A stretch of DNA of 22,371 nucleotides. Origin: Candidatus Heimdallarchaeota archaeon B3_Heim (GTDB taxonomy: Archaea; Asgardarchaeota; Heimdallarchaeia; Hodarchaeales; Hodarchaeaceae). Of the stretch, positions 5,303 through 21,335 are shown one piece after another. The stretch lies in the NCBI GenBank assembly GCA_003144275.1, contig NJBF01000048.1, positions 1-22,371 of the forward strand, read 5' to 3'. The notes beneath the pieces were generated by a model. The model was not told where the DNA came from. It searched no databases and saw only the letters and a list, made by a program, of their open reading frames with translations. The stretch's first letter is position 1, and each line of letters begins with the position of its first letter. Both the position numbers and the translations under genes were made by a program.

Positions 5303-6925
5303 TCATTCACAAGTAGAAAAATTGAAAATTTCACTTCTAACAGATTTACGGAGTAAAGTATCTTTTGGTGTCTTTCGTTTCATTGGATAATCAATAGTAA
5401 AATGTACACCCCGACTTTCTTTGCGATGAAAGCCAGCATCGATAATCATCTGTGCAATGTCTGCTAAATTCCGAAGTTCAATCAAATCTGAAGTAATATG
5501 AAAATTCCAGTAATATTGGTTTATCTCATCCTGTAAGAGGTGAATTCGTTGTTTAGCACGACGAAATCGTTTATCGGATCTAACTACCCCAACGTAGTTC
5601 CACATAAGTAATCTGAGCTCCATCCAATTTTGGGAGACAACTACAGATTCATCACTGTCTACAGCATCACCAGATTGCCAGCGGGAAAATGAACAAGCAG
5701 GGGGCCCGTTATTCACCAGATTACGGCATTCATTAGCTGCATAATGAGCCATCACACTAGATTCTAATAACGAGTTGGAAGCAAGTCGATTTGCTCCATG
5801 AAAGCCTGTACAAGCCACTTCTCCTATAGCTAATAATCCTAGAATGTCAGTAAGGCCAGAAACGGAGGCTTTTACTCCCCCAATGGCATAATGGGCAGCT
5901 GGTACTATAGGAATTGGTTCTTTTGAAATATCAATACCTAGCTCAAAACATTTAGCAAAAATACCTGGAAAACGCTTTTGGATAAAATCTGAACCTTTGA
6001 AAGATATGTCCAAAAATAAACAATCACTCCCAGAACGTTTAAGCTCAGAATCGATTGCTCTAGCAACCACATCACGAGGAGCTAATTCCATTCGAGAATC
6101 ATACGAGGACATAAACTGAAAACCTGCTTCATCAACCAGTTTGGCCCCCTCTCCTCTAAGTGCCTCTGAAATCAAAAAGGATTTTGCAAACGGATGATAG
6201 AGTAAGGTAGGATGAAATTGAATAAATTCCATATTCATAATAGTGGCACCAGCACGATAGGCCATAGCAATGCCGTCTCCACTTGAAATATCAGGGTTAC
6301 TAGTGTATAGGAAGGCCTTTCCCACCCCCCCAGTAGCTAGTACTGTAACTTTAGCAGCAAAATTCTTGACCAGATCTTGATTCTTATCTAAAACATAAGC
6401 CCCGAGGCATCGACCTGACCGAACCTTAAGATTGATAGCAATGTGATTTTCAAGTACAGTTATTCGAGGATCTTCTAAGACTCGGGCGATAAGCACATTT
6501 TGAATATCAGCCCCTGTTATATCTTTAGAATGGACTACTCGACGATGAGAATGCCCTGCTTCTAATCCTAGATCATAGTGATCATTCTCCTTTTTGGAGA
6601 ATTGAACACCCCATTTTACAAGTTCTTCAATTCGTTCAGGTGCTGCTGATACGATTTTTTTTACAACATCTAAGTGACACAGGCCATCTCCGACATTTAC
6701 AGTGTCTTGAATATGAGTTTCAAACGAATCATCTGTAGATAATGCTGCACTAATTCCTGCTTGTGCTAGGATCGTAGCACATTCTGTAAGATTCGTTTTT
6801 GTCAAAACTATAACTTTACCAATAGAGGCCACTTTTAATGCCATTGATAATCCAGCGATTCCCGATCCAATGATTAAAACATCACACATTGTCTCCAACG
6901 AATCAATAGTATCCACATTTTTCAC
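5303..6925 (-). CDS. nadB: L-aspartate oxidase
   Basis: FAD motif IIGSGIAG, AQAGIS, EAGHSHRRVVH, EFIQFHPT, LISEALRGEG, LAPRDVVAR, HYAIGG, HGANRLASNSLLE and ESRGVH. GTG start. Confidence 0.95.
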   Translation of the reverse strand: MKNVDTIDSLETMCDVLIIGSGIAGLSMALKVASIGKVIVLTKTNLTECATILAQAGISAALSTDDSFETHIQDTVNVGDGLCHLDVVKKIVSAAPERIEELVKWGVQFSKKENDHYDLGLEAGHSHRRVVHSKDITGADIQNVLIARVLEDPRITVLENHIAINLKVRSGRCLGAYVLDKNQDLVKNFAAKVTVLATGGVGKAFLYTSNPDISSGDGIAMAYRAGATIMNMEFIQFHPTLLYHPFAKSFLISEALRGEGAKLVDEAGFQFMSSYDSRMELAPRDVVARAIDSELKRSGSDCLFLDISFKGSDFIQKRFPGIFAKCFELGIDISKEPIPIVPAAHYAIGGVKASVSGLTDILGLLAIGEVACTGFHGANRLASNSLLESSVMAHYAANECRNLVNNGPPACSFSRWQSGDAVDSDESVVVSQNWMELRLLMWNYVGVVRSDKRFRRAKQRIHLLQDEINQYYWNFHITSDLIELRNLADIAQMIIDAGFHRKESRGVHFTIDYPMKRKTPKDTLLRKSVRSEIFNFSTCE

Positions 6926-7086: not shown

Positions 7087-7755
7087 TCATTGCATACGAT
7101 AAGTACACTGCCCTCGTTCCACACATGACTTACATCGTGTCTCCCATCTGGATTTCTTTATATCTTTCCCAATGTTAATAGCAAATGATACAGATTTAAT
7201 GGGTTTCATCATATATCCTTCAGTCAGAGATACTCCAATATCTTCACTGGGGAGATTATTGAAAATTAATTCTTGATCCTGTACACTCCACTGACAATAA
7301 CCTGGACTAAACCGTTGTGAATACTCAAAATTTTGGCTTTTTACGATATCAACAATTTCACGATTCACCTGATCGGCCACTTGTTCTACACCAGCAGATC
7401 CAAACGCATCTAATATAACGCCGTCTACATATTCCCCTGATTTCATTCGATTATTCGCTTCCAAAGGTAGAGATTTACCAATTGTTACGATAGCCAATGC
7501 CACTCTTTCAGCTTCAGCAAAGCATTCTCGAAAGGGGAGTTCTGAAGCATTAAAAATCTTGAAAATACCTTTCGGTTCATATAGAGTGACTGCTATGCTT
7601 TTCATTCGATCCAATTGTATCTTTAAATCGGGTGTAAGCGCTTTTCGAGAGGAATTATGAGAAGATTTGTTGCTACGTTGCAGATAGTAGACTATATCTT
7701 TATCCCGAACTGGAATTTCCTCATATTTTCTTCTATGAATCAAAATTGGAACCAA
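7087..7755 (-). CDS. Stand-alone B12-dependent methionine synthase activation (SAM-binding reactivation) domain
   Basis: VTIG, ILDAFGSAGVE, RFSPGY and MKPIKSVS motifs of the short activation-domain family, plus C-terminal C-x2-C-x5-C-x-YR. The start is uncertain (TTG). Confidence 0.85.
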   Translation of the reverse strand: MVPILIHRRKYEEIPVRDKDIVYYLQRSNKSSHNSSRKALTPDLKIQLDRMKSIAVTLYEPKGIFKIFNASELPFRECFAEAERVALAIVTIGKSLPLEANNRMKSGEYVDGVILDAFGSAGVEQVADQVNREIVDIVKSQNFEYSQRFSPGYCQWSVQDQELIFNNLPSEDIGVSLTEGYMMKPIKSVSFAINIGKDIKKSRWETRCKSCVERGQCTYRMQ

Positions 7756-7773
7756 AAAATTCTTTTATCATGA

Positions 7774-9198
7774 TCATAAATATTTAGAGGAGATTTTATC
7801 CAATTCAGTTGATTTTAAATTATCCAGAGCTTTTTGTGGGCTTTTCGCTAAAAGTCCTTCAATTTCTTCTTTTGCTCTCTGCCTAGAGGAACGAGAACCT
7901 GCTTTTTTCCATTCATCGCGAGTCATCCTAGCAATTATAGGACTCGGTAAGAAAAGCTCTTTACGGAATAGTTGAAGAGTCGATGGATGAGATAACAACT
8001 CATTAGTATTATCGTAATCTTTTAGTATTTCTTCAGCAAACGGAGACCCATAATCATGTATACCTCTAAGAAATCGTTTAACCATACCGGCAATTTCATT
8101 ATCAATTAATAATTTTTCAATTGATTGACAGGATTCAAAATCGAGCATTCCAGGACCAGAAATCATGTTAATACCGGTTAATCCAGCTAACAAAGCACCC
8201 ATCCCAGCCTCCAAACCAGCTTGTGCATCAGGAATCTTGGCATCACTCAGACTCATATAGGCATGAGTAGGCAAATTTAAATATTTACCCATTTCAACAT
8301 CCCCAATGTCAATCATCATTGTTTCAATTGCTCCCATTGGTGTAGTACCATGTTTCATGTCCATTATCGCAGGGGAACCTCCCCAAATAATTGGAGCTCC
8401 TTTTTTAGCTAATTGAGAAATTACAACTCCTGCAAGAGACTCGGCACAATGTTGAGTAATTGAACCGATCAATGTTATCGGTGCATTGGCTCCTGACATA
8501 GGCATACTGATAAATTCAGAGGGTATCATTCTCTCAGCGGCGTCAATAACAGACTGTGTTGTTAGATCCGACCAAGAAAGTGGTGGTGAGGGACAAGCAT
8601 CAAAAATTGCAAGAGGTTTAGCTGCTAAATCTTTTTCAGACGTGCGACACGTCAATAATAATTCATTCATTATTGAAAAACTCTCTTTACGAAATGTACC
8701 TGTAACAATGGGCTTGTGACCGTATTTAAGAGTCGTATATAGACGATGCCAATCTTGGGCACTCTTTGGAACATCAGAATATACTAGTGATGTACTCTGA
8801 GCATCAATATTTAATAATTGATCAACAATTTTGGTAAAACGAATGAAATCTTGATGGAGAGGTTCTCTTATTTGTCCACTATTTTCATCAAGAATGAATA
8901 TAGCTGCAGATCCAGGGTCAAAATGAATGTTATCATCTTTGAGGGATAGATGAACGTTTCCTTCACGATCATACATTGTTATTTCATGAGGTGGGGAGGT
9001 AAGACACTTATCTACTAAATCAGAGGGAATATAATACCGATGGTTATCATTAGGCACTCCTTGTTCCTTGAGAAGAACTTCTGCCTCTGAATTTTCAAAT
9101 AAAACACCTAGCGATTTAAGAATATGTTTGGCTTCCTCAAAAATTTTCTTCTTGTATTCATCATTAAGTAATGCTACTTTAGGTCTTAAGATTCCCAT
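7774..9198 (-). CDS. mttB: Trimethylamine methyltransferase (MttB/MtgB) superfamily protein, non-pyrrolysine
   Basis: N-terminal RPKVALL...ILKSLGV, SPPLSW, GANAPITLIG..Q..AESLAG, PIIWGG, MDMKHG, SDAKIPDAQAGLE and GMLDFE. No in-frame TAG. The substrate is unknown. Confidence 0.9.
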   Translation of the reverse strand: MGILRPKVALLNDEYKKKIFEEAKHILKSLGVLFENSEAEVLLKEQGVPNDNHRYYIPSDLVDKCLTSPPHEITMYDREGNVHLSLKDDNIHFDPGSAAIFILDENSGQIREPLHQDFIRFTKIVDQLLNIDAQSTSLVYSDVPKSAQDWHRLYTTLKYGHKPIVTGTFRKESFSIMNELLLTCRTSEKDLAAKPLAIFDACPSPPLSWSDLTTQSVIDAAERMIPSEFISMPMSGANAPITLIGSITQHCAESLAGVVISQLAKKGAPIIWGGSPAIMDMKHGTTPMGAIETMMIDIGDVEMGKYLNLPTHAYMSLSDAKIPDAQAGLEAGMGALLAGLTGINMISGPGMLDFESCQSIEKLLIDNEIAGMVKRFLRGIHDYGSPFAEEILKDYDNTNELLSHPSTLQLFRKELFLPSPIIARMTRDEWKKAGSRSSRQRAKEEIEGLLAKSPQKALDNLKSTELDKISSKYL

Positions 9199-9209
9199 TT
9201 CTACACTTC

Positions 9210-10094
9210 CTAGCGATTGTCAATTAACATTCTCATCTTTTGAATATGGGTTGGGGTGGTACCACAACAACCTCCCACAATTTTCACTCCCAGATCAATC
9301 ATCTGTTCTATATCATTCACAAACTCATCAGGTGATTGATCATAAACAGTAATCCCTCCCTCTAACCGTGGTTGTCCGGCATTGGGTTTGACTGAGACTG
9401 GTTTATCAGTCAATTGCACCAATTCTTTGGTAAGCTCTATCATTTGATCTGAGCCCAAGGTGCAATTTGTACCGATTACGTCAACATTCTCCTCCTCTAA
9501 AGTATTCACACAGGTTTCCAAAGAATCTCCCATGATTGTGAAAAAACCCCTTGTTTTTGTTTTACGGTAAGTCATCGAGGCTATGATTGGTTTCAGAGAT
9601 ACTTCTTTTATTGCGTGAATTGCGGCTGACATTTCCTGAAGATCTGACATTGTCTCAATATGCCACAAATCAACGCCTACCTCCAATACTTCAACTTGTT
9701 GTTGAAATCCATTTTTCCATTGATCTCCTGATGCTTCTCCAACTGGTGGTCTAAATTCACCAGATGGACCGATATCTCCCACAATCAATTTTCCTCTTGG
9801 GGGTTGAATATCTTTAATATTTCTTAGTGCCTCGATATTAATCTTCTGTAAATATTCACTTAAATGCTGTCTCTCTAAATTTACTAAATTTGCACTAAAA
9901 GTACACGTTTGAACCATATCTGCCCCTGATTCATAATAACTAGCTAATACTTTTTTAACAATTTCAGGGCCTTCAATATTCAAGAAATCGGGTAATTTGC
10001 CCGGTTCTAGATTATAGTTCATTAATTGTGTACCCATTGCTCCATCGAATAAAATAATCTTTGATACATTACCTAGCCATTGTGTGAAAGACAT
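9210..10094 (-). CDS. Stand-alone homocysteine S-methyltransferase domain (MetH N-terminal module)
   Basis: FDGAMGT, TCTFSAN, GDIGPSG, ETMSD, Zn-ligand motifs GTNC and GGCCGTTP, and KPNAGQP. Confidence 0.92.
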   Translation of the reverse strand: MSFTQWLGNVSKIILFDGAMGTQLMNYNLEPGKLPDFLNIEGPEIVKKVLASYYESGADMVQTCTFSANLVNLERQHLSEYLQKINIEALRNIKDIQPPRGKLIVGDIGPSGEFRPPVGEASGDQWKNGFQQQVEVLEVGVDLWHIETMSDLQEMSAAIHAIKEVSLKPIIASMTYRKTKTRGFFTIMGDSLETCVNTLEEENVDVIGTNCTLGSDQMIELTKELVQLTDKPVSVKPNAGQPRLEGGITVYDQSPDEFVNDIEQMIDLGVKIVGGCCGTTPTHIQKMRMLIDNR

Positions 10095-10129
10095 CAGTAA
10101 CTCACTTTATTCTAACATATAAATCCAGA

Positions 10130-10774
10130 TTACATCAAACTTTTTGCTAATTTTACAGATTCAACTGCATTTTCAGCGTAACCATCAGCATGGCATTCGT
10201 CTACCCATCCCTGTGTAACAGGGGCACCCCCAAATATCACTTTGAAGTTATTTCTAAGATTTTTCTGTTCTAAGATCTCAATTACTTTTTTCTGATTTAA
10301 CATTGTCGTGGTTAACAGAGTTGAAACTCCAATGATATCTACGTTCTCATTAATTGCCACATCAACTATTTTTTCTGCTTTCACATCGGTACCTAAGTCA
10401 ATAACTTGAAATCCATTTGCTCGAAGCATAGTGGCGACAATGGTTTTACCAATGGAGTGAATATCGCCTTCAATTGTAGCTAAGAGAACTTTACCTGAGG
10501 ATTGACGTTCAGACCCAGATGATTGCAGCTGTGGTGTAAGAACATCCACCGCTTTTTGCATAATCTGTGCTCCAGACATTAATTCTGGAAGAAAGAATTC
10601 TCCATCATCCCAAAGATCCCCTACTTTACGAATGCCTTCTCCAAATCCTTTCTCGATCACTTTCAAAAGATTCATTTCTTCTTTGAGTGCTTGATTTGCT
10701 AAATTCAACGCTTTTTCTTGATCTAGGTTCACAATGGCATCAGCCATTTCTTTATAGATTTCTTCTGCATCCAT
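10130..10774 (-). CDS. Corrinoid (cobalamin-binding) protein, MttC/MtgC-like
   Basis: Cap domain (FFLPELM), D-x-H-x-x-G (GDIHSIGK) base-off/His-on motif, DLG, STLLTTT and GGAPV. Confidence 0.93.
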   Translation of the reverse strand: MDAEEIYKEMADAIVNLDQEKALNLANQALKEEMNLLKVIEKGFGEGIRKVGDLWDDGEFFLPELMSGAQIMQKAVDVLTPQLQSSGSERQSSGKVLLATIEGDIHSIGKTIVATMLRANGFQVIDLGTDVKAEKIVDVAINENVDIIGVSTLLTTTMLNQKKVIEILEQKNLRNNFKVIFGGAPVTQGWVDECHADGYAENAVESVKLAKSLM

Positions 10775-10820
10775 CTTCAGAAAATCTCCTTTTTAACAAT
10801 TAAGATCGATAAATAAATTA

Positions 10821-11183
10821 TTATCTATAGTTTTCCCAGCTAAAATCAATTTCGTGAAGAAAGGTTTGAAATTCCAATTTTCTCCCTTCTGGATCTGTAG
10901 TAAAGAAGTTGTAAATATTATATTCTGTATTCTCAGTGGGTTTAGCTGCCGTCTGTTGTTGTAGTCTTTGATAAATGTCATCGACATCTTGTTTATTCTT
11001 GTAAAAAAAAGTTAATAACCCGTCTTTACTAATTTTATCTCCTTCACAAAACCCGAATAAAAAATTATCGTGTTTAAAGATAATACAGTCACCCTGATCG
11101 ATCCAAATTTTTGAACCGATGCTAGTATAGAAAAATTTCATCTTCTCAAGATCTTGAGACCTTAAAAATACGATACCAGCCAT
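10821..11183 (-). CDS. VOC/glyoxalase superfamily protein
   Basis: DLEKMKFFYT, VDDIYQRL and FFTTDPEGRKLEFQ patterns in a 120-aa protein. Confidence 0.8.
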   Translation of the reverse strand: MAGIVFLRSQDLEKMKFFYTSIGSKIWIDQGDCIIFKHDNFLFGFCEGDKISKDGLLTFFYKNKQDVDDIYQRLQQQTAAKPTENTEYNIYNFFTTDPEGRKLEFQTFLHEIDFSWENYR

Positions 11184-18981: not shown

Positions 18982-19180
18982 CTAATCAACATTGTGACTG
19001 TGAGAATGCCCAGAATGTGTGGTATTCACTGGATGAACACTGATTAGTAACTTGGGTATTTTATACATGTGTTCATTGCGTACATATTTGTGATCGAGAA
19101 AAGAACTCACATACGATGGATGTGGGGGTGTACATCTATCAAAACTGGGGTTGTTGCAAAAAGTCAACTTTGGCTCAGAA
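18982..19180 (-). other. Possible C-terminal fragment of an unidentified gene ending in a His-rich tail, cut by the junction
   Basis: Open frame ...TFCNNPSFDRCTPPHPSY...VHPVNTTHSGHSHSHNVD* with left-segment GC content. No family recognised. Confidence 0.3.
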
Positions 19181-19892
19181 AAATAATTCCTTTTTCTTTA
19201 CAGGTTAAATATAAATTATGATACTCTTTTAATAATAAATCATACTTCTTAGATATTTCAGGATCTTTGGAGAAAATTAAATTAATAGGCATAATGACAA
19301 TTGAACCGTCGATAATCACAATGTCGATATCAGTATATCTATTAATCATATTGTTAAGTAAATTAATTTCCATGAATTTCATGTCCATTGAGATCTTAGC
19401 TTCAATTGTGGTGTCATCACGATTCAAATAATTTCCCTGCACAGTATAATTATTAAATCCATTTAAGTCCGGAAAATATGCAATATTTGCTGAGTGATTT
19501 TTGTAAAATAAATATTTTACTGCTATAGCTTTTAGAAATGAAAAGTCCACATTCATAAATTTTTTAACAACTGAACTTCCATCTACACTAACGACATTTA
19601 ATCCTCTAATATTTGAGGATTTAACTTGTTGTTTTAAGAAAGATTCTTTAATATAATAATTAGAATAATTAATTAATCCAGAAAAATCTAAATCATCGAG
19701 ATTTTTTATTATTATTTCTATAAATTCAGTTTTTATTTTTTCAAGCTCAATATATTCATTCGCGATAGCTTTTAGATATTTCAGTAGAATTTGTTCTTTT
19801 GTAAAACTTGTATAAGATAAATTTTCTTTTTCTTTTAACAAATAATTTGTATGTTTACTATTAGACTTTAACGAATTATTCTCAATTGTCAT
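19164..19892 (-). CDS. nurA: NurA-family DNA double-strand break repair nuclease, C-terminally truncated
   Basis: Catalytic motifs VVSVDGS and IVIIDGSI. Ends at KGIIF-LSQS* just where the conserved G-x-x-K motif and C-terminal half are expected. Confidence 0.8.
   Translation of the reverse strand: MTIENNSLKSNSKHTNYLLKEKENLSYTSFTKEQILLKYLKAIANEYIELEKIKTEFIEIIIKNLDDLDFSGLINYSNYYIKESFLKQQVKSSNIRGLNVVSVDGSSVVKKFMNVDFSFLKAIAVKYLFYKNHSANIAYFPDLNGFNNYTVQGNYLNRDDTTIEAKISMDMKFMEINLLNNMINRYTDIDIVIIDGSIVIMPINLIFSKDPEISKKYDLLLKEYHNLYLTCKEKGIIFLSQS
19165..19190. other. Compositional and coding discontinuity (probable contig join or misassembly)
   Basis: Line 19021 has 22/60 GC and line 19201 has 11/60 GC (hand counts). 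The nurA frame ends abruptly here. Confidence 0.7.
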
Positions 19893-19985
19893 TTAAAGTA
19901 TTTAAAAATAGGATAAAAATAATAATAATGAGATATTTAATTTTTTGATTTCTTGAAGTTTTAAGAACATAAATATCTCAGATAA

Positions 19986-20639
19986 ATGTCCATCCAAATT
20001 GGAAGAAACCCATGGATTTTAATTGGGTTATCATCTCTTGAAATTTTATTCGTCATTTTACCAGCATTCATCGCTGGAAAAATTGAGAAAAAAGGAGTTA
20101 GAGAAGAACTAACTGAGATGGGTTTTAAAAAAAATCAAGATTCATTGATAGCAAATCTATTAAAAATCTTCACTGGTATTGGAATTGGTATTTTACTTTT
20201 TGCAACTGGTGGTTTCATTATTTACTTTTTCAGAGATATTATTGTTAAATTCATATTCGGAACGTCTTTCGTGCAACATGGTGATGCAGGAGCAATTTTA
20301 ACCCAACCAATTCAACCCAGTATAATTCAAGTAATAATAATCATTGTTTTACAGTTTTTGATTATTGGAATTTGTGAAGAAGCCTTCTTCCGAGCATTTT
20401 TAATAAACAAATTTAAAAATAAAATGAGATTAAGATATGCCTTGATATTCTCGTCAATATTTTTTACACTTTACCATGTTCCTCCCTTCTTAGTGCCAAT
20501 TACAACCACGATTACTTTTTTCGGATATTATTTTAGTATTGGACTTTTGTTATCTTTTATTTTTATATATTTTGATTATTCAATAATCCCTGTCTCAATT
20601 GCTCATTCTATTTTTAATATTTTAATCATTATATTATGA
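19986..20639 (+). CDS. CPBP (CAAX protease/Abi-like) intramembrane metalloprotease
   Basis: EEAFFR, FTLYH and AHSIFN motifs with multiple TM helices. Confidence 0.9.
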   Translation: MSIQIGRNPWILIGLSSLEILFVILPAFIAGKIEKKGVREELTEMGFKKNQDSLIANLLKIFTGIGIGILLFATGGFIIYFFRDIIVKFIFGTSFVQHGDAGAILTQPIQPSIIQVIIIIVLQFLIIGICEEAFFRAFLINKFKNKMRLRYALIFSSIFFTLYHVPPFLVPITTTITFFGYYFSIGLLLSFIFIYFDYSIIPVSIAHSIFNILIIIL

Positions 20640-20792
20640 GTAATATTTCATTTTAAAATAATAACTTTAAATTAAACAAAATTTAATTAATATTTGGTAT
20701 ATTAATATTTTAAATTAAAATCGATAAAATAACATAATCAATATCAATATTATAAAAAAATCAACACCAATTTCTAATTTGAATAATAAATA

Positions 20793-21335
20793 ATGACCGA
20801 TTATGATTTTACCTATAAAATATTAATGCTAGGTGATGCTAGCGTTGGTAAGACCTCACTTACAATAAGATATATCTCTGGATTTTTTTTAGAAGACCTC
20901 AAATTAACTATTGGTGTAGACTTTTATTCAAAAACTACTAATTTTAAAGATAAAAAAGTTAAACTTCAAATATGGGATTTTGGAGGAGAAGAGCGATTCA
21001 GATTTCTTCTTCATCAATATTGTAAGGGTGCTAATGGTGCTTTCTTTCTTTATGATATAACTAATTCTACTACTCTCGACCATCTACCAGATTGGACGTC
21101 AATCATCAGAGAGCATGCAGGTGATATACCCATAATGTTAATTGGTTCAAAACTCGATTTGGATGAATTTAGAGCCGTGTTAAGAAATGATGGAATACTA
21201 TCGGCAAGGAAATATAATCTTGCCTCATTTGCGGAATTATCTTCAAAAACAGGGCAAAATGTAGAAAAAGCATTTGAAGTTTTGACAGAAATTTTGTTTG
21301 AAAGATATTCAACTGAACAAAAGACTATTGTATAA
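20793..21335 (+). CDS. Rab-like small GTPase (Lokiarchaeia type)
   Basis: G1 GDASVGKT, G2 TIGVDF, G3 WDFGGEE, G4 SKLD, G5 SSK. No C-terminal Cys. Confidence 0.93.
   Translation: MTDYDFTYKILMLGDASVGKTSLTIRYISGFFLEDLKLTIGVDFYSKTTNFKDKKVKLQIWDFGGEERFRFLLHQYCKGANGAFFLYDITNSTTLDHLPDWTSIIREHAGDIPIMLIGSKLDLDEFRAVLRNDGILSARKYNLASFAELSSKTGQNVEKAFEVLTEILFERYSTEQKTIV

Follow-up and report, generated by a model that had tools for sequence, protein, structure and literature searches.

We have identified a four-gene cassette that probably encodes an MttB-type split methionine synthase of Asgard archaea (Hodarchaeota), a reading to which we assign a probability of roughly 0.65. The genes occupy positions 7087-10774 of contig NJBF01000048.1 from Candidatus Heimdallarchaeota archaeon B3_Heim (GenBank assembly GCA_003144275.1); the whole stretch of DNA analysed, positions 1 to 22,371 of this contig, is referred to as the window. 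They encode a corrinoid protein, a homocysteine module of the type found in the cobalamin-dependent methionine synthase MetH, a pyrrolysine (Pyl)-free methyltransferase of the MttB family, and a MetH-type activation protein. The reading builds on domain identities, on catalytic and ligand motifs, on conserved linkage, and on the lack of other acceptor or donor modules in the genome. Statements of absence from that genome refer to profile searches of the organism's own assembly, which is 94% complete.

In the cycle that we propose, the MttB-like TIM-barrel would move a methyl group from a methylated compound to the Co(I) of the corrinoid protein. The MetH-type zinc module would then use methyl-Co(III) to methylate homocysteine, yielding methionine and regenerating Co(I). 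Should oxidation leave the cofactor as Co(II), the activation protein would repair it by reductive methylation with S-adenosylmethionine (SAM) and a low-potential electron donor. A pterin module, for folate or for tetrahydromethanopterin (H4MPT), would take no part in the cycle. The cassette would serve as a supply of methionine or methyl groups when corrinoid and donor are available, beside a B12-independent split MetE. We infer this direction of flow, together with the physical contacts between the proteins, the donor and the physiological role.

Gene layout

Five open reading frames (ORFs) lie co-oriented on the minus strand at 7087-11183, with intergenic gaps of 46, 35, 11 and 18 bp. The features are as follows, in order of transcription, with the RNA element match given last.

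10821-11183, minus strand: VOC-like protein, 120 amino acids; a neighbour outside the conserved cassette
10130-10774, minus strand: corrinoid protein, 214 amino acids (PF02607 and PF02310)
9210-10094, minus strand: MetH-type homocysteine module, 294 amino acids (PF02574)
7774-9198, minus strand: non-pyrrolysine MttB-family methyltransferase, 474 amino acids (PF06253)
7087-7755, minus strand: MetH activation-domain protein, 222 amino acids, TTG start (PF02965)
8151-8250, minus strand: match to the Rfam family PYLIS_3 inside the MttB gene, 47.2 bits

An initial annotation of this DNA, made from its letters and ORFs, had described five co-oriented genes with these gaps, and the ORF coordinates and the Pfam and NCBIfam domains agree with it. 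It had also recognised three MetH modules (homocysteine, cobalamin and activation) as separate genes beside a Pyl-free MttB, an assignment borne out by Pfam and by fold: the profile matches to PF02574, PF02310/PF02607 and PF06253 are clear, and the borderline match to PF02965 was confirmed by fold. The zinc triad, the DxHxxG motif and the RxxxGY motif of MetH are all present, on three separate proteins.

Homocysteine module and corrinoid protein

The homocysteine module matches PF02574 with 215.8 bits, and the genome has no other PF02574 gene. Its best solved relative is the homocysteine module of Thermotoga maritima MetH (1Q7M), which it matches over its full length with 193 bits, compared with 55.8 bits for a stand-alone, S-methylmethionine-type homocysteine methyltransferase (5DML, MmuM-type). 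The score against the NCBIfam BHMT model (172.8 bits) falls below the cut-off of 338. In the alignment to 1Q7M, the zinc cysteines C211, C276 and C277 are kept, as is the homocysteine-binding E147 (E146 in T. maritima).

The corrinoid protein consists of a cap and a Rossmann domain (PF02607, 73.2 bits; PF02310, 100.8 bits), carries the His-on DxHxxG motif (D104, H106, G109), and scores 219.6 bits against TIGR02370, above the cut-off of 215.3. It is the sole methyltransferase-type corrinoid protein detected in the genome. Profile searches returned no match to CobS (PF02654); several B12-binding proteins are nevertheless encoded.

MttB homologue

The MttB homologue matches PF06253 with 238.6 bits, has no in-frame stop, and is the product of the only MttB gene in its genome. 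Against TIGR02369 it scores 336.6 bits, below the cut-off of 525, and its scores against MtgB (2QNE, 170.8 bits) and MttB (7XCL, 165.6 bits) put it at about the same distance from both. Matches of 300-600 bits are obtained instead to a large uncharacterised clade, whose signature is S97, H/Q312, Y314, S347 and E355. This signature holds down to about 35% identity to the window protein, and more distant representatives differ. Judged by bit scores and by the residue signature, the MttB homologue appears to fall in a clade apart from both MtgB and MttB.

Alignment to 7XCL places Leu317, encoded by CUG, at the pyrrolysine position, where Pyl-dependent MttB has an in-frame UAG at its active site. 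The PYLIS_3 match, for which the gathering score is 38, covers the full model with several of the modelled pairs non-canonical, and model positions 1-3, the UAG of the Pyl codon, align with the CUG of codon 317. The match probably reflects coding-sequence homology to true mttB rather than a working insertion element, and the Rfam PYLIS_3 family can match Pyl-free MttB homologues.

Activation protein and its alternative

The activation protein is the only match to PF02965 in the genome, and at 25.2 bits it is borderline (cut-off 25); a phmmer comparison with T. maritima TM0269 (1J6R) gave an E value of 0.0026. An AlphaFold2 model built on 19 homologues reached a mean pLDDT of 84. Foldseek ranked 1J6R first for this model (TMq 0.71, E 2.5e-12), and ranks 2-19 are all MetH activation domains. 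The predicted fold confirms the borderline assignment. The RxxxGY motif for SAM (R148-x3-G152-Y153) is invariant in the 19 homologues.

Four cysteines, C154, C208, C211 and C217, are likewise invariant in these homologues. A C-terminal C-x2-C-x4/5-C pattern also occurs in the activation proteins of two bacterial cassettes (L147:3342-4028 and L151:3316-3996), whereas the Cys that follows GY is a trait of the Asgard proteins, with Gly at that position in the two bacterial ones. The cysteines may form a metal or iron-sulfur site, in a region where the confidence of the AlphaFold2 model is low.

RamA/RACo (PF14574), which would reduce a corrinoid protein with ATP, has no match in the genome. When the activation protein itself was searched for as a single sequence in five genomes, no match was obtained, and a profile search was used instead. 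The profile matched in six of 29 genomes, namely three close relatives of the window organism and three Heimdallarchaeia; there was no match in four more members of the window organism's genus, 12 Lokiarchaeia and seven further genomes. Results for both proteins are available for 27 genomes, which are related and so do not represent independent counts: the activation protein occurs without RamA in three and RamA without the activation protein in 22, while one (a member of the Heimdallarchaeia) has both, and one has neither. The switch between the two is seen within the genus of the window organism as well as between classes. This near-complementary pattern fits two alternative repair routes for the same corrinoid protein, SAM-dependent reductive methylation here and ATP-dependent reduction by RamA elsewhere.

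Conservation of the cassette

Neighbourhoods of the MttB orthologue were compared in three sets of loci: the best 30, 20 more distant ones, and the best 80 of a species-level genome collection. Of 400 genomes of the phylum, 270 have the orthologue, which is often single-copy. Throughout the best 30 loci, the genes for the corrinoid protein, the homocysteine module and MttB lie side by side in the same orientation, the corrinoid gene being past the end of the locus in one case. Among the 20 more distant loci, all three genes stand together in 12 and MttB stands alone in six; one of the remaining two has only the corrinoid gene beside MttB, and the other has MttB with no partner beside it and the activation gene about 3.7 kb away. 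The triad is together in 69 of the best 80 loci; in a further three it is incomplete because the contig ends before the corrinoid gene. MttB is alone in seven of the 80 (three cut by the contig end, four with unrelated neighbours), and one very short contig has only the activation gene beside MttB.

Loci with an adjacent triad span Hodarchaeales, Heimdallarchaeia and Lokiarchaeia, so that the cluster first noticed in the window proves to be syntenic across Asgard genomes (69/80 of the best loci). With C for the corrinoid protein, H for the homocysteine module, B for MttB and A for the activation protein, the gene order is C-H-B-A in the genus of the window organism, C-H-A-B in Heimdallarchaeia and bacteria, and C-H-B in Lokiarchaeia. 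Linkage is kept though the order changes, and therefore selection keeps these genes together. Because the neighbourhood of corrinoid protein, homocysteine module and MttB recurs in so many of the best 80 loci, the arrangement is far beyond chance. The four genes form a conserved cassette to which the VOC gene does not belong.

C-H-A-B cassettes with 39-42% MttB identity were also found on contigs with bacterial-type neighbours, which are probably from bacteria. The closest named relative is a Ca. Hodarchaeota metagenome-assembled genome (MAG) with 87% MttB identity. A contig labelled 'Candidatus Nanopelagicaceae bacterium' (DATKTW010000084.1) carries an Asgard-type triad with 67% MttB identity, and is probably a mis-binned or mislabelled Asgard contig. 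A distant second MttB paralogue (25-29% identity) adjoins the triad in some Lokiarchaeia, where one corrinoid protein may serve several donor enzymes.

Methionine and methyl-transfer genes elsewhere in the genome

The cassette lacks PF00809, and no pterin module of the MetH or AcsE type was found in the rest of the genome. The only Pterin_bind protein is dihydropteroate synthase (DHPS; TIGR01496, 202.4 bits, cut-off 162.6), the gene for which adjoins a CofE-like ligase gene. Neither MtrH nor a full-length MetH was matched. No recognisable corrinoid-loading enzyme besides the MttB homologue is present; a partial match to CdhD (61 bits) lies on contig C10. Two further regions bear on methionine metabolism and methyl transfer.

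C87:107933-111739: split MetE (two genes, one Meth_synt_1-like and one Meth_synt_2) with a divergent MTHFR directly after it, by domain matches
C87:114286-115176: weakly MtaA-like gene of the URO-D family, about 3 kb from the split MetE region

The folate-independent route put forward in the initial annotation accords with the lack of a separate pterin module, and the split MetE and MTHFR show that this route is not exclusive. Among 26 high-quality Asgard genomes with an MttB orthologue, 14 have no MetE-family match at all, and neither MetE nor MtrH was found in three Heimdallarchaeia genomes checked. MtrH homologues are present in Lokiarchaeia and other classes.

Several points weigh against the cassette being a self-contained methionine synthase in the form that we propose. 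Because split MetE and MTHFR are encoded elsewhere in the genome, the cassette is not the sole methionine route of this organism, which could in principle make methionine without it. With no CobS found, the organism probably has to import its corrinoid. The two divergent URO-D/MtaA-like ORFs of the genome, which score 46-55 bits against MtaA/MtbA cut-offs of at least 235, may be other acceptors of the methyl group. In Lokiarchaeia and other classes, MtrH may feed the corrinoid protein from methyl-H4MPT, so that MttB may not be alone as donor enzyme where MtrH homologues occur. All four of the residues with which MtgB binds glycine betaine appear, from the alignment, to be replaced in the MttB homologue. 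Finally, the literature searched contains no biochemical or genetic test of any member of the cassette.

Methyl donor and alternative readings

The replaced residues bear directly on the methyl donor. MtgB of Desulfitobacterium hafniense binds glycine betaine through Y97, F356, H348 and R312, and R312 is common to all characterised members, which act on acidic quaternary amines (Picking et al. 2026, PMC13080624). In a HMMER alignment to 9YCE/2QNE, MtgB residues Y97, R312, H348 and F356 correspond to S97, H312, S347 and E355. Across 15 Asgard orthologues, S97 and E355 are invariant and S347 is found in 14; at position 312, 13 have His, one has Asn and one has Gln. Glycine betaine, proline betaine and carnitine, the donors suggested by the initial annotation, are unlikely because these four betaine-binding residues, including the shared Arg, are replaced; the donor is probably an N-methyl compound other than an acidic betaine.

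It follows that demethylation of one of these three compounds in the manner of MtgB, MtpB or MtcB, with the methyl group passed on to homocysteine, is an improbable account of the cassette. A marine-sediment habitat, judged by the labels of DNA runs that hold about one-fifth of the sampled words, would suit it, and osmolytes are thought to be common in marine sediment. All characterised non-Pyl members of the MttB family also use quaternary amines (PMC13080624). Against this stand the S97/E355 pair, which is invariant in the Asgard orthologues and common in the wider clade, the His or Gln in place of an Arg that is kept in every characterised acidic quaternary-amine enzyme, and the lack of a betaine transporter in the window.

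A second alternative, which we consider doubtful to a similar degree, is that the MttB-like barrel binds endogenous methyltetrahydrofolate or methyl-H4MPT, so that it is a non-homologous replacement of the MetH folate module in a housekeeping methionine synthase. Its appeal lies in distribution: the orthologue is near-universal in several Asgard classes and often single-copy (270/400 genomes of the phylum), more than half of the high-quality genomes (14/26) have no MetE-family match, and three Heimdallarchaeia lack both MetE and MtrH in our searches. An internal donor is what would be expected of a housekeeping enzyme, and we note that N5-methyl-pterins are tertiary amines and thus chemically near to trimethylamine. 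Yet pterin binding is known for no member of the MttB superfamily, this account has no positive support and no pterin-binding motif to point to, and the genome of the window organism already pairs MTHFR with its split MetE.

A related and equally speculative account is confined to Heimdallarchaeia and Hodarchaeales, which are close to the eukaryotic stem. There, the cassette would be a housekeeping methionine synthase with an endogenous donor (e.g. a methyl-pterin) and an activation protein bearing a Cys-ligated metal or iron-sulfur centre. This centre would take electrons directly, replacing flavodoxin-type partners and RamA. We regard it as having little chance of being right.

It is no more probable that the cassette is mainly a catabolic or methyl-transfer hub in which homocysteine is a side branch, as in the MtgBCDE system of Ruegeria, the main acceptors being H4MPT via MtrH and a coenzyme-M-like thiol via MtaA-like proteins. 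The corrinoid protein of Ruegeria does serve both betaine catabolism and methionine synthesis; Lokiarchaeia and other classes have MtrH homologues and extra MttB paralogues, some of them beside the triad; and the Asgard literature takes MttB-like genes as a sign of methylotrophy. By contrast, searches of the window organism's genome revealed neither MtrH nor an AcsE/MtgA-type module nor a convincing MtaA, and the partner that stays constant beside the MttB orthologue from lineage to lineage is the homocysteine module.

That the PF02574 protein acts alone on S-methylmethionine, SAM or betaine, like MmuM or BHMT, and that its position is meaningless is very improbable, since the family's inclusion of corrinoid-independent enzymes and the sub-threshold BHMT score are outweighed by the far stronger match to MetH homocysteine modules than to 5DML and by an adjacency to the corrinoid gene that is kept across classes and domains despite changes of order.

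Neighbouring genes and other features of the window

The VOC-like protein scores 18.1 bits against Pfam Glyoxalase, below the cut-off of 20.6, and a sequence search of the PDB returned no match. In the ESM Atlas, both its features (0.95) and its structure (TM 0.92-0.94) lead to VOC clusters. The initial annotation had counted this gene as a member of the unit, an assignment that we withdraw because only members of the genus have the gene near the cassette, and in the nearest relatives about 1.5 kb separates the two.

Downstream of the cassette, the gene at 5303-6925 was considered as a further member and ruled out, being that of the L-aspartate oxidase NadB (710 bits). A MinD-like gene lies upstream on the opposite strand. 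Both neighbours are unrelated to the cassette. A scan for sigma-70 promoters and terminators gave matches no more frequent than those in shuffled sequence, and the sigma-70 model is not applicable to archaea. A 223-base contig at 9129-9351 spans the 11-bp gap between the homocysteine module and MttB with no differences; it comes from a run labelled metatranscriptomic and flagged as probably DNA, and is not counted as evidence of expression. None of the sequencing runs listed as matching this DNA is an RNA run. The G+C content dips to 0.26 at 19001-21000, compared with about 0.36 elsewhere in the window.

Relation to known systems and significance

The same four-gene cluster has been reported in Electryoneota and 'diverse bacteria' by Williams et al. 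2022 (Environ Microbiol, PMC9324843), who placed its MttB homologue in an uncharacterised clade outside MtgB and MttB and nearer to MttB, and hypothesised a novel corrinoid-dependent methionine synthesis with an unknown methyl donor. The window cassette resembles theirs in its four gene types, in the placement of its MttB homologue and in the hypothesis itself, and the C-H-A-B order also occurs in Heimdallarchaeia. The host differs, being Asgard here rather than bacterial, and the activation gene lies after that of MttB. An extra invariant Cys follows GY in the Asgard activation proteins, and in many Asgard genomes RamA takes the place of the activation gene. The Electryoneota MAGs also carry a full MetH, whereas the genome of the window organism lacks MetH and has a split MetE. 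On the strength of its gene content, the window cassette is an archaeal example of the bacterial cassette hypothesised in 2022, not a new kind.

Among experimentally supported systems, the nearest is MtgBCDE of Ruegeria pomeroyi, Phaeobacter inhibens and Sinorhizobium meliloti, for which the evidence is genetic (Mausz et al. 2025, PMC12478193). Its single corrinoid protein works in both betaine demethylation and methionine synthesis, and its pterin module MtgD is essential for methionine. MtgBCDE, including the split MetH of Price et al., shares with the window cassette an MttB-family enzyme and a separate homocysteine module that use one corrinoid carrier. It has a glycine betaine donor, RamA and DUF1638 for reactivation, aerobic hosts, and an mtgE gene that is usually unlinked. 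The window cassette, on the other hand, has no pterin module, no RamA and none of the betaine residues, and the homocysteine module is its constant neighbour. Searches of the genome for the traits of MtgBCDE gave no PF00809 match other than DHPS and no PF14574 match, DUF1638 not having been searched for. The idea behind the initial annotation is not new, as the cluster and the hypothesis were published for bacteria in 2022 (PMC9324843) and genetic evidence for a related system with a shared corrinoid protein followed in 2025 (PMC12478193).

Classical MetH, including that of T. maritima with its separate TM0269 (1Q7M, 1J6R), has the homocysteine module, the B12 domain with DxHxxG, and the activation fold with RxxxGY in common with the cassette. 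It differs in that here the pterin module is missing, all modules are separate, and an MttB-family barrel occupies the donor position. The MtgB/MtgC/MtgA system of D. hafniense and the MttB/MttC system of Methanosarcina likewise combine an MttB-superfamily methyltransferase with a cognate corrinoid protein; their acceptor is a pterin (MtgA) or coenzyme M (MtbA) methyltransferase, not a homocysteine module, and the window homologue lacks both the betaine-binding residues and the pyrrolysine. MesA-D and core-MetE are reported to make methionine from methyl-corrinoid without a folate domain (Price et al. 2021, PMC7857596; Deobald et al. 2020, PMC7005905). They have a MetE fold, whereas the window cassette has a MetH-type PF02574 protein with a donor methyltransferase encoded beside it.

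Our literature search found no paper on this cassette in Asgard archaea; in the Asgard literature searched, MttB-like genes are read as methylotrophy linked to MtrH, and homocysteine is unmentioned. Three things make the cassette of interest: the identity of its donor, its wide spread among Asgard archaea and, in the activation protein, the cysteines and the complementarity with RamA. If the split methionine synthase reading is true, many Asgard archaea would make methionine, and hence SAM, from a donor that bypasses folate and H4MPT. They would depend on external corrinoid, and their growth would be tied to methylated compounds and to the B12 producers of the sediment. Such a pathway would also matter for how one-carbon metabolism is reconstructed close to the origin of eukaryotes.

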